DNA from: Octopus vulgaris
Taxonomy: Eukaryota
DNA: 64,000 nt
Assembly (NCBI GenBank): GCA_951406725.2
Contig: OX597832.1
Coordinates: 2,976,001 to 3,040,000, forward strand
Reading direction: 5' to 3'
Within the stretch, counting starts at the first letter, position 1; every line of letters begins with the position of its first letter. Under the pieces are notes generated by a model. That model did not search any database. It saw only the letters and a program-made list of their open reading frames with translations, and was not told where the DNA came from. A program made the position numbers and the translations under genes. Below are positions 60,201 to 61,447 of this stretch, in pieces.

Positions 60201-61447
60201 AAACTTGCACAAAGAATAAGCACAAGGTAAAATTACTACCTGCTTTTATAGCAAATTTATGCAGGTAGTTTATCCTGTCCCCCTCTGCCTTTTAGTTCAT
60301 ACAATTGAAAAGGCTGCATTATTTATGGGATGACCCTATATCTTCAATCAGACTCTCAGATAAAACTTGGCCTTGTGAATAAAATTAGGTAAACAAAAAC
60401 TGGAAGCCTGTCAGATGTACTTGTTTTAAGGTTGTGTATATTTAAATACCACCATCTGACCCTTAGATGCCTTTAGTAATGGGCACTAAATGTTGTTAAT
60501 CCTTCATCTGTCTGAGAATTAGTTATTGCCTCCTTTGTACTCCTGCCAGGGTTTCTTTTTCCTATTTTCTTAATTAACCTTCAAAGCATTATATGAGTTC
60601 TCTTTCTGACAAAGCCACAGTTAAAAGAAAACTGCTGTTGGGAGCTAGGTTACCTGAGACTTCAGAATGTTTTGAATATTTCTTTATTTGTCTTATTTAT
60701 TTCTCAACACTTTCTTGTCATTGTGGCACTGTTATTTGTGGAGCATGATCTTTTACTCCATAGTTAGTTTCAGTTTTTTGCACTTGATAAAGTACTTGAC
60801 TGCAACTAAAATTACATTTTCTAATGTTTGTCTTGTTGTTCCATTCTAGTTGGTCACTTTTGAGACTCTAGAATGTTCTTATTAATGGTCGCAATCATTT
60901 GATATGGTTGATATTGTTTTTCTGATCTTTGAATGCAAAAAGTTACTTGTAGCATTACCAGACATTTCTTCCTCTGCTTTTTGATGAACAAAAAGAGTTG
61001 GAGGGCATAACATCCATCAGCAGTCATTATTTTAGCTACAAGGTGAAAAGATTTTATATCACTTCCTACTCAGATGTGCTAAGGAACATATAATATCCAT
61101 TTTGTAGTCCTAAACAACTAAAGGGAAAGCCTTATAACCTGGTTTTCCTGTACTGTTTCAGAGATACACACCCAGAAATAAGGTCAATATGTACAACAGA
61201 AATTGGGGTATGGATGCGGAGGTACCCGAATATGTTTTTAGATGATAGCTACTTAAAGTACGTCGGTTGGACATTGCATGACAAGGTAAGTCATGGGTTG
61301 ATGATTTGCTGACATTTTTGCAGGGACACCCAGCCAGAAATAAGAGCAATATGTTCATCAGAGATCGGGGTGTGGATGCGAAAGTACCCTTACATGTTTC
61401 TCGATGATAGCTACTTGAAGTATGTTGGTTGGACATTGCATGACAAG
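11443..61447 (+). CDS. STAG1/2: Cohesin subunit SA / stromalin (STAG1/STAG2 family), 5' portion of a multi-exon gene; continues beyond the window
   Basis: Exons 11443-11786, 15497-15578, 17341-17478, 21922-22095, 23509-23713, 25143-25294, 34219-34292 and 61162-61285 OR 61324-61447 join in frame (phases 2,0,0,0,1,0,2,0). They give STAG-domain and SCD motifs: [83 protein letters not shown]. Confidence 0.95.
13086..14487 (-). mobile_element. Non-autonomous piggyBac element with internal about 174-bp tandem duplication
   Basis: TTAA TSDs (13082-13085, 14488-14491); TIR CCCTTTCGTTAC / GTAACGAAAGGG; duplicated block starting ttccagaccacatcg at 13568 and 13742. Confidence 0.9.
14645..14858 (-). mobile_element. 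tRNA-derived SINE (second family)
   Basis: Reverse complement of the 52101-52315 element (ggccttgtgccaaaatttgaaa tail). Confidence 0.7.
15497..15578 (+). CDS. STAG1/2: SA/STAG coding exon 2 (82 nt)
   Basis: tttctttgtag acceptor, gtaagt donor; [27 protein letters not shown] (acidic SDFE followed by a basic patch, as in SA N-termini). Confidence 0.85.
16190..16710 (+). mobile_element. SINE 3' tail with (GAT)n followed by a full OR-type SINE, embedded in (TA)n
   Basis: ccaacccatgctagcatggaaagcggacgttaaatga(tga)n at about 16190-16295, then a copy of the 4420 family at 16321-16710. Confidence 0.8.
17341..17478 (+). CDS. STAG1/2: SA/STAG coding exon 3 (138 nt)
   Basis: cttgtaatag acceptor, gtaaga donor; SAKRRRGG...[15 protein letters not shown] resembles the STAG 'LFEVVKLGKSAMQ' segment. 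Confidence 0.9.
18276..21889 (-). mobile_element. Degenerate Gypsy-like LTR retrotransposon with both LTRs and a nested piggyBac
   Basis: Direct repeats 18276-18582 and 21553-21889 (TGTT...AACA); PBS-like gtgacgacaagg next to the right LTR; purine tract next to the left LTR on the minus strand; gag remnant QQQQQ...[12 protein letters not shown] (21134-21340). Confidence 0.75.
19720..20915 (-). mobile_element. piggyBac (PGBD4-like DDE) transposase remnant, one end missing
   Basis: ORFs 20229-20636 and 19897-20250: ALDYFLLLF...[43 protein letters not shown]-like ggtaacaaaagggtt near 20901-20915; homologous to 35802-36877. Confidence 0.85.
21922..22095 (+). CDS. STAG1/2: SA/STAG coding exon 4 (174 nt)
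   Basis: tttattttcag acceptor, gtaaat donor; [33 protein letters not shown]...[11 protein letters not shown]. Confidence 0.97.
22990..23335 (+). mobile_element. RTE-like LINE fragment
   Basis: Broken frames with WPCSI and [19 protein letters not shown]. Confidence 0.55.
23509..23713 (+). CDS. STAG1/2: SA/STAG coding exon 5 (205 nt), STAG domain
   Basis: tttttattgcag acceptor, gtaaag donor; [18 protein letters not shown]...[14 protein letters not shown]. Confidence 0.97.
23870..24385 (+). mobile_element. RTE-clade LINE reverse transcriptase fragment
   Basis: YRGIA...[24 protein letters not shown]...VDFKKAFD...MLKILKAY. Confidence 0.8.
25143..25294 (+). CDS. STAG1/2: SA/STAG coding exon 6 (152 nt)
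   Basis: tctttttgtag acceptor, gtattt donor; [32 protein letters not shown]...KRQE. Confidence 0.97.
25556..26892 (-). mobile_element. Short internally deleted Gypsy-like LTR element; SINE tail inserted in the left LTR (25702-25888)
   Basis: Direct repeats about 25556-25944 and 26667-26892 ending ...acaaca; gag remnant [15 protein letters not shown] similar to 21134-21340; tttctccttttt (minus-strand PPT) after the left LTR. Confidence 0.7.
26988..27830 (+). mobile_element. hAT-Charlie-like transposon 5' end, truncated
   Basis: TIR CAGTGGTTCCCAAAC with gggtcgc/gcgaccc subterminal motifs; ATGGATAAATGGTTAAAAAAG (MDKWLKK) start at about 27725. Confidence 0.6.
28865..30150. repeat. Diverged tandem duplication, about 740-bp unit
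   Basis: Shared blocks aatagcagtgatcacatag (about 28895 and 29634), (GA)n-gagact (about 29195 and 29960), ctactctgcagtgaatg (about 29287 and 30020). Confidence 0.7.
32056..32162. repeat. SINE-tail-derived perfect hairpin (31-bp arms, 9-nt loop)
   Basis: 32092-32122 is the exact reverse complement of 32132-32162. Confidence 0.9.
32192..32542 (+). mobile_element. OR-type SINE copy
   Basis: Same body and tail as 4420-4773. Confidence 0.8.
33241..33442. mobile_element. TTAA-flanked about 200-bp MITE (piggyBac-type)
   Basis: ttaacccttt...ggagggttaa; second copy at 56483-56705. Confidence 0.7.
33900..34190 (+). mobile_element. tRNA-headed short retroelement with 5' fold-back and hammerhead-like motif
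   Basis: A box TGGCGTAGTGG (33930-33940), B box GTTCGATTCC (33975-33984), 15-bp inverted duplication of the head, CTGATGA (34070-34076)...stem...GAAA (34098-34101). Confidence 0.65.
34219..34292 (+). CDS. STAG1/2: SA/STAG coding exon 7 (74 nt)
   Basis: aattttccag acceptor, gtatgt donor; [25 protein letters not shown] (phase 2). Confidence 0.97.
34585..35262 (-). mobile_element. Tc1/mariner-superfamily deleted element
   Basis: TA-CAGGGTG...CACCCTG-TA ends; minus-strand [10 protein letters not shown] and WPPNSPDCN transposase motifs. Confidence 0.75.
35802..36877 (+). mobile_element. Internally deleted piggyBac element
   Basis: TTAA TSDs (35798-35801, 36878-36881); TIR CCCTTTCGTTAC; ORF 36071-36463 is the acidic N-terminus plus LDYFFLLF...TAETNRYA of PGBD4-like transposases. 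Confidence 0.92.
37429..37647. mobile_element. mariner-type MITE
   Basis: TIRs gaaggggtgctgaaaagctcctggc / gtcaggaactttccatcaccccttg, TA flanks. Confidence 0.7.
39860..41420 (+). mobile_element. Degenerate RTE-like LINE (RT region)
   Basis: [59 protein letters not shown]; many stops and frameshifts. Confidence 0.8.
42246..43757 (-). mobile_element. Merlin / IS1595(ISXO2)-like DNA transposon, degenerate full-length copy
   Basis: About 90-bp TIRs (ttctgtcttctgcataatggaattaatatgattatgcaaaaa and its reverse complement); minus-strand CxC..CxxC N-terminus, [28 protein letters not shown]...[11 protein letters not shown]. Confidence 0.85.
43821..44264. mobile_element. Tigger/pogo-like MITE
   Basis: TA-CAGGTCGTCATCGACTTACGACC / GGTCATAAGTCGATGACGACCTG-TA. 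Confidence 0.85.
44296..44375 (-). ncRNA. Degenerate type I hammerhead ribozyme motif (second pLTR copy)
   Basis: Minus strand: tttttgggat-CCGATGA-...-GAAAC-ctaag-GTA-gtcccataaa. Confidence 0.5.
45461..45547 (+). ncRNA. Degenerate type I hammerhead ribozyme motif in a Penelope pLTR
   Basis: Stem I ggccaa..tttttgggat / atctcataaattggcc; core (t)TGACGA; stem II ccataaa/tttatgg; GAAA(A)C-ctaag-GTA. Confidence 0.55.
46931..47081. repeat. AT-rich fold-back inverted repeat
   Basis: 46931-46975 is the reverse complement of 47037-47081 (45 bp), with an inner aaacataaaaataaatataatta palindrome. Confidence 0.85.
48507..48940 (+). mobile_element. Two tandem tRNA-derived SINEs (second family)
   Basis: Heads ggtggtgagcttgcagaac / gagctagcagaatcattagc; shared aataagtac body; tgtgccaaaattt-like tail. 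Confidence 0.7.
48960..49560 (+). mobile_element. RTE-clade LINE 3' end
   Basis: [14 protein letters not shown]...[34 protein letters not shown]; (GA)n tail. Confidence 0.85.
52101..52315 (+). mobile_element. tRNA-derived SINE (second family)
   Basis: ggcagtgagctg...gagttcaaattcc (B box)...ggccttgtgccaaaatttt. Confidence 0.75.
54157..54475 (-). mobile_element. OR-type SINE copy
   Basis: Reverse complement of the 4420/16321 family. Confidence 0.8.
56483..56705. mobile_element. TTAA-flanked MITE, same family as 33241-33442
   Basis: ttaaccctttaacatt...aatgctaaagagttaa; shared ctgtcaaatg and tttagaatgacat blocks. Confidence 0.7.
59073..60338 (-). mobile_element. mariner (DD34D) transposon, full-length but pseudogenised
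   Basis: TIRs gggtcatcccataaataatgcag / ctgcattatttatgggatgaccc with TA flanks; [42 protein letters not shown] motifs split over frames. Confidence 0.93.
61162..61285 (+). CDS. STAG1/2: SA/STAG coding exon 8A (124 nt), SCD; alternative copy A
   Basis: ctgtttcag acceptor, gtaagt donor; (R)[41 protein letters not shown]; phase 2 in, phase 0 out. Not in the ORF track. Confidence 0.93.
61324..61447 (+). CDS. STAG1/2: SA/STAG coding exon 8B (124 nt), SCD; alternative copy B
   Basis: atttttgcag acceptor, gtaagt donor; (R)[41 protein letters not shown]; same length and phase as 8A. Confidence 0.93.

Follow-up and report, generated by a model that had tools for sequence, protein, structure and literature searches.

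Two stromalin-domain exons 38 nt apart in an octopus cohesin SA gene, likely used one per mRNA

Does an octopus make two forms of the cohesin subunit SA/STAG from one gene? The question is raised by a stretch of 64,000 nucleotides of Octopus vulgaris DNA (contig OX597832.1, positions 2,976,001 to 3,040,000, forward strand; hereafter the window), in which an earlier note had described two similar exons, 8A and 8B, of the stromalin conserved domain (SCD). We think it somewhat probable that this SA gene, with two intact SCD exons 38 nt apart, likely places one of them in each mRNA, 8B by default and 8A rarely and probably under tissue or stage regulation, and that the two full-length proteins this would yield are predicted to differ on the surface beside an unchanged pocket for regulators.

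The host gene was identified as SA/STAG by its STAG, SCD and HEAT domains and by full-length likeness to human SA1 and SA2 (E 0 to both chains). All five O. vulgaris SA proteins mapped exactly to the locus, in 32-33 coding exons with GT-AG junctions. When exon 8 and a second exon of the gene were searched genome-wide, with the best candidates alone scored, one SA gene was found; the second exon gave one match only. The region of the exon pair is laid out as follows:

34219-34292, + strand: coding exon 7, the common upstream neighbour of 8A and 8B, placed by protein mapping; 107 reads entering 8B have this exon's 3' end as their loose end
34293-61161, + strand: intron 7, 26,869 nt to 8A and 27,031 nt to 8B, longer than any other coding-region intron of SA
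61162-61285, + strand: exon 8A, the minor SCD exon, carried by isoforms P0125, P0126, P0127, P0132 and P0136 and by about 3 of 228 reads
61286-61323, + strand: spacer of 38 nt between 8A and 8B, with branch-point-like adenines and, if retained, an in-frame TGA at 61310-61312
61324-61447, + strand: exon 8B, the default SCD exon, covered by about 225 of 228 reads, which include junctions to either neighbour
61448-64000, + strand: start of intron 8, which totals 15,645 nt and runs past the window
Beyond the window, G000:C19:3053093-3053191 (L004:3093-3191), + strand: exon 9; 128 reads leaving 8B have its 5' end as their loose end

Both exons are 124 nt long, lie between AG and GTAAGT borders, have the same phase (2 in, 0 out) and are free of stops, just as first described. 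Each encodes 41 residues after a split arginine codon, the first two bases of which are the AG at the 3' end of exon 7; this arginine matches R298 of human SA2. Recomputation returned the 21 differences among 124 nt (17%) reported earlier, 15 synonymous and 6 replacement by shortest mutational paths, with the same replacements (H/Q, S/A, T/S, T/S, R/K and N/Y, 8A before 8B). In human SA2 numbering, in which peptide position n is 298+n, 8A has H301, S306, T309, T310, R318 and N321, and 8B has Q301, A306, S309, S310, K318 and Y321. Nei-Gojobori comparison of the 41 codons gave a pS of 0.56 and a pN of 0.07 (dN/dS ~0.07; Fisher p 4e-7). The assignment to the SCD held for both copies, which match Pfam PF21581 (E 2e-18 and 3e-18), and their similarity ends at the exon borders, splice signals excepted. 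These sequence data support an old tandem duplication with both copies under purifying selection, as had been proposed, and octopus and cuttlefish both hold the pair. The two exons share several marks of mutually exclusive exons: they are homologous and internal, are alike in length and phase, have intact splice sites, and show purifying selection on both copies together with conservation across species.

The final 21 nt of the two exons and the following GTAAGT are identical (61265-61291 and 61427-61453), in contrast to 56% divergence at the remaining synonymous sites; such identical 3' ends could reflect either a splicing element or gene conversion. The suggested look for further copies beyond position 64000 revealed none in 200 kb downstream, so that the window and this extension (264 kb) hold no third copy, and none was present among the three candidates scored genome-wide. 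A 27-nt likeness at 52806-52832 (E 1.6e-4) was rejected as a third copy, having no fitting frame or splice sites.

We next consider how one exon could exclude the other. The joins exon 7-8A-exon 9 and exon 7-8B-exon 9 both keep the frame. As anticipated, inclusion of both exons shifts it and reaches a TGA inside 8B, and skipping of both shifts it to a stop in exon 9; retention of the spacer also gives a premature stop. At 38 nt, the spacer compares with 133 nt for the next shortest of the gene's 32 introns. Its branch-point-like adenines, candidates by sequence, lie 16, 19 and 27 nt from the 8A donor, and with a whole spacer of 38 nt the distance from donor to predicted branch point falls below about 50 nt. 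A limit of 50 nt for steric exclusion, and one default with one regulated exon as the usual pattern, are described in PMC5740500, where 57 human clusters (9%) have a spacer under that limit. The octopus spacer is likely too short to splice, and one of 8A and 8B is likely present per mRNA in octopus and cuttlefish. Exclusion may arise by steric block, the 8A donor lying 16-27 nt from any spacer branch point and so within the 50-nt limit, and nonsense-mediated decay would clear the products of double inclusion, skipping and spacer retention. The choice would then be a competition of two acceptors in which that of 8A is the weaker in use. The pyrimidine share of the acceptor tract is 0.60 for 8B, which has a short tract, and 0.75 for 8A, and the 29 other acceptors scored range from 0.50 to 0.95.

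On a Dscam-type arrangement of docking site and selector, which would need competing, conserved intronic pairings, folding gave weak leads: the exon-pair region folded no better than its shuffles (z -0.59) and two local hairpins were weak. One of these, and a donor-like site within 8A, are placed as follows:

61123-61149, + strand: predicted 9-bp hairpin pairing the 8A pyrimidine tract; its loop contains ATAAC, which resembles a branch point
61258-61263, + strand: donor-like GTACGT inside 8A, whose join to 8B drops 66 nt and keeps the frame, as in the Sepia model P0137

The first hairpin reached z -2.3 to -2.4 in two windows picked post hoc and z -0.4 in a wider window; as a reason for the rarity of 8A, this predicted structure is a weak lead. 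A predicted 10-bp hairpin at 61286-61310, in which the 8A donor pairs with the spacer, was not significant (z -1.3); an I-to-V difference in the octopus-like record P0003, read from the protein alone, would keep it as a G-U pair. No reads supporting the 61258-61263 donor were seen.

Use of the exons was examined in raw RNA reads aligned to 60950-61750, taken from four runs dated 2026, three of organism C (about 6% of each) and one of organism G (2%). Organism C is a related octopus, and its three runs come from one study, with tissue unspecified. About 225 of its 228 reads fell on 8B and about 3 on 8A, a ratio of about 75 to 1. Judged by their matched loose ends, exon 7 is joined by 107 of the 8B reads and exon 9 by 128. 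The depth table places the 8A reads, two of run X22 and one of X23, on the 5' half of that exon, starting at its acceptor. Both reads of organism G were on 8B. No 8A-exon 9 junction was seen among the aligned reads; neither was an 8A-8B joint or any spacer depth, and 8A reads were few. 8B is thus the default exon and 8A is rare in the sampled reads. All three runs of organism C share a fixed synonymous C>T at 61402 in 8B.

For 8B, then, reads join both neighbours; full 8A isoforms are present in the automated annotations of four species. Database isoforms are automated gene models. Those listed carry 8A in two and 8B in three of five for O. vulgaris, in one and two of three for O. sinensis, and in two and four of six for O. 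bimaculoides. The cuttlefish Sepia pharaonis has one 8A isoform, one 8B isoform and one model (P0137) that joins part of 8A to 8B. 8B is also carried by the one Argonauta protein and by all seven further Sepia-cluster proteins that hold the exon. The earlier idea that one or the other exon is used is borne out in its frame logic and in these annotated isoforms, but the reads make that use very unequal, and no junction from 8A to exon 9 was seen in them.

We then asked how old the pair is. Between octopus and Sepia, 8A differs at 1 of 41 residues, 8B at 0 of 41 and the flanks at 2 of 425, whereas 8A and 8B differ from each other at 5-6 of 41, roughly as much as octopus differs from snails and bivalves. 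Because the octopus and Sepia copies are near-identical while 8A and 8B are this far apart, the duplication predates the octopod-decapod split, dated at ~270 Ma (PMC13652810). No Nautilus sequence was recognised among the homologues returned, so the coleoid split stands as a lower bound on its age. The order in Sepia P0137 is 8A, then 8B, and both copies stand in tandem in O. bimaculoides (P0150, P0005) and in the separate record P0003 (three contigs), which has flank indels. The 38-nt length of the spacer is kept in P0003, and its translation is kept in O. bimaculoides P0150. A-to-I RNA editing was considered for the tryptophans of P0003 at TGA of the window and was set aside, since they fit a gene call that reads TGA as W.

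Outside the cephalopods, none of the 18 species with at least two listed isoforms, among 26 named species tabulated, had two exon versions; these isoform lists are partial (e.g. 15 of 29 and 15 of 36 members), were compiled without Drosophila, nameless members and fragments, and could leave a rare exon unannotated. Among 33 metagenome loci, 32 are SCD, 31 with the same exon borders and one without an intron there, and all have a single exon copy within at least 224 nt either side; they are mostly near-identical and so represent few lineages. The metagenome scan returned no cephalopod locus (best identity 78%), and a search of short proteins yielded six fragments, all of non-cephalopod type. 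From the sequences compared, the exon pair looks confined to coleoid cephalopods.

What would the switch change in the protein? The exon had been assigned to the surface that binds CTCF, shugoshin and WAPL; some of the binding pocket is indeed encoded here, but by the same residues in both copies, so that switching exons would not exchange one pocket for another. We take D326 and K330 to belong to the pocket of SA2. Together with L329 and W334, these make up the pocket residues within the exon; all are the same in 8A and 8B, so that the pocket is left intact, and all are invariant in 107 distinct outgroup segments (193 before collapsing). The shugoshin/CTCF pocket residues of SA2 given in PMC10279526 are Y297, W334, L329, L366 and F367. 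The six sites that distinguish 8A from 8B lie at variable columns of the 107 segments (mean entropy 1.85 vs 0.46 bits, p 0.0005). Two states are unusual there, H301 occurring in 1 and Y321 in 0 of the 107. The T/S difference at 309 was dropped as a coleoid-specific change: T occurs in 0 of 107 outgroup segments but in 32 metagenome loci, for which the selection pattern demanded T.

For the truncated 8A protein of O. bimaculoides, an AlphaFold model built on a 40-row alignment predicts a helix at 302-318, a loop at 319-325 and a helix at 326-336. On an ideal helix, residues 306, 309 and 310 face away from the conserved hydrophobic face; residues 301 and 321 belong to loops, and 301 follows R298 by three positions. 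Three of the six substitutions would accordingly sit on the outward side of a single HEAT helix and three at its ends and in loops. The DNA-binding residues of yeast Scc3 (K224-R226, K423, K513 and K520; PMC7492086, PMC6120753) are all outside the stretch aligned to the exon (Scc3 378-412). Judged from sequence, the exon switch at most tunes the surroundings of the pocket, and the six substitutions may fine-tune SA contacts in cells that use 8A rather than switch CTCF, WAPL or shugoshin binding on or off.

Several points weigh against the reading given at the outset. Only about 3 of 228 reads fell on 8A, toward its 5' end; no 8A-exon 9 junction was seen, so full use of 8A rests on automated gene models, and because 8A reads are so few, the absence of 8A-8B joints says little. 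With the tissue of the samples unspecified, the reads do not speak for regulation of 8A. At S/A306, T/S310 and R/K318 the residues are ones that other animals often have, and the model has moderate confidence over the exon (pLDDT 66-79, in a truncated protein) and gives no contacts. The SA core as a whole is nearly static between octopus and cuttlefish (the 2 of 425 above), so fixed versions indicate constraint and not that the differences matter.

In a plainer account, possible though in our view doubtful, the exons are truly mutually exclusive and each came to be used in some cells after the duplication, so that neither copy can lose function, but the proteins are equivalent, and the six differences between them are drift that was tolerated and became fixed before coleoids radiated. 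The identity of the pocket residues, the lack of any known Scc3 DNA-binding residue within the exon, the mostly conservative nature of the changes and their place at variable columns all agree with it, as do flanks that evolve as slowly as the exons. It sits poorly with the rare H301 and the unmatched Y321, and with a divergence of 6 in 39 aligned positions between 8A and 8B, compared with 3 in 39 between human SA1 and SA2; a redundant minor exon should, moreover, be readily lost over 270 Ma. The opposite extension goes further than we would, and we regard it as unlikely: a coleoid two-variant cohesin in which exon switching would let one SA gene do, at the level of splicing, what STAG1/STAG2/STAG3 do in vertebrates. 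There 8A would be neural or germline, and H301/N321 with the outer-helix residues would retune engagement with CTCF, WAPL, shugoshin or a lineage-specific partner, helping to set the tissue-specific chromatin loops that have been reported for coleoids.

Control of SA dose is a quite improbable role for 8A, although spacer retention and double inclusion both yield premature stops, the few 8A reads cover the 5' half alone, and one Sepia model uses the donor-like site within 8A. On that account stop-containing mRNA would be degraded and the full 8A protein would be a by-product. Nothing in a poison exon requires its amino acids to be conserved, yet dN/dS here is ~0.07 and 8A is identical at 40 of 41 residues between octopus and cuttlefish; full-length 8A isoforms are annotated in four species, and the reads contain neither spacer depth nor the 8A-8B joint. 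An assembly artefact or a dead copy, both already dismissed in the earlier note, or else an allele pair, is by now largely refuted and scarcely credible given tandem copies in P0003 with its flank indels, in O. bimaculoides and in Sepia, a 17% nucleotide divergence restricted to the exons, and strong purifying selection on the copies. The rarity of 8A in aligned reads would fit it, and annotations are not fully independent, since O. vulgaris isoform names may derive from O. sinensis models. We therefore retain, as the somewhat probable reading, two intact exons that are likely alternatives, with 8B the default.

The rest of the gene and the window adds the following. The upstream coding exons are placed by the exact mapping of the five proteins:

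11443-11786, 15497-15578, 17341-17478, 21922-22095, 23509-23713 and 25143-25294, + strand: coding exons 1-6 of SA/STAG

Of 32 introns ranked by length, those on either side of the exon pair come first and second, at 26.9 and 15.6 kb, ahead of one of 8.9 kb. Near the SA C-terminus, a 27-nt cassette exon (G000:C19:3106275-3106301; extended coordinates 130275-130301) is in P0013 and absent from P0123, and the final coding exon of O. vulgaris models is one of two alternatives, at 3111049 or 3115964 (135049 and 139964 in extended coordinates). A search for kleisins found one Rad21/Rec8 N-terminal locus. A long (TA)n/TATGCA microsatellite occupies 61937-64000, 500 nt downstream of 8B. The tRNA-like stretch at 33920-33995, where ARAGORN called no tRNA, was read as probably a tRNA-derived SINE; low-complexity frames without stops on both strands at 44456-45133, in intron 7, are probably a repeat remnant, and so, probably, is a fragment at 5148-5651 that we take to resemble a reverse-transcriptase tail.

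The arrangement itself is a standard tandem mutually exclusive exon pair; what sets it apart is its host, the SA gene. Like the homologous tandem exons of human catalogues (PMC8373072, PMC5740500), 8A and 8B are equal in length and phase, with a length not divisible by three, and the human exons likewise comprise one default and one minor exon, are old and conserved, and change at variable surface positions. STAG1, STAG2, STAG3 and RAD21 are not in the table of 236 human events in the available parts of PMC8373072 and its supplement, in which ATE1, as a control, was found. Vertebrate STAG1 and STAG2 (and meiotic STAG3) resemble the proposed octopus forms, which would likewise be two SA forms for the same cohesin place, one per complex, with the same pocket residues. 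SA1 and SA2 come from separate genes, and most of their differences lie at the two termini, N and C (PMC10238091), whereas one SA gene was found in octopus and its forms would, by sequence, differ in 41 core residues only, at twice as many aligned positions (6 vs 3 of 39). SA diversity by splicing also comes from the cassettes of SA1 exon 31 and SA2 exon 32, but in disordered ends (PMC10238091), and from Stag1 end isoforms in stem cells, again one-gene diversity but with terminal changes (bioRxiv 10.1101/2021.02.14.429938). The octopus pair, unlike these known SA splice forms, would exchange one copy of a duplicated exon for the other within the folded SCD/HEAT core. The impression that it had not been described held for search listings of the open-access literature, which showed no paper on it, although subscription journals and cephalopod genome-paper supplements may list it, and both isoforms are already in automated database annotations. 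In the parts available, PMC13652810 has "cohesin" in its reference list only and PMC8999970 has nothing on an SA exon pair.

The reason animals keep several SA subunits is open; the paralogues of vertebrates are separated by hundreds of differences. The octopus duplication falls in the lineage that has the large coleoid genome rearrangement and context-specific loops (PMC13652810), and in which CRISPR is in use in squid. Two SA forms from one gene, differing at six core residues held for ~270 million years, would provide a clean test of cohesin tuning beside the CTCF/WAPL/shugoshin pocket.

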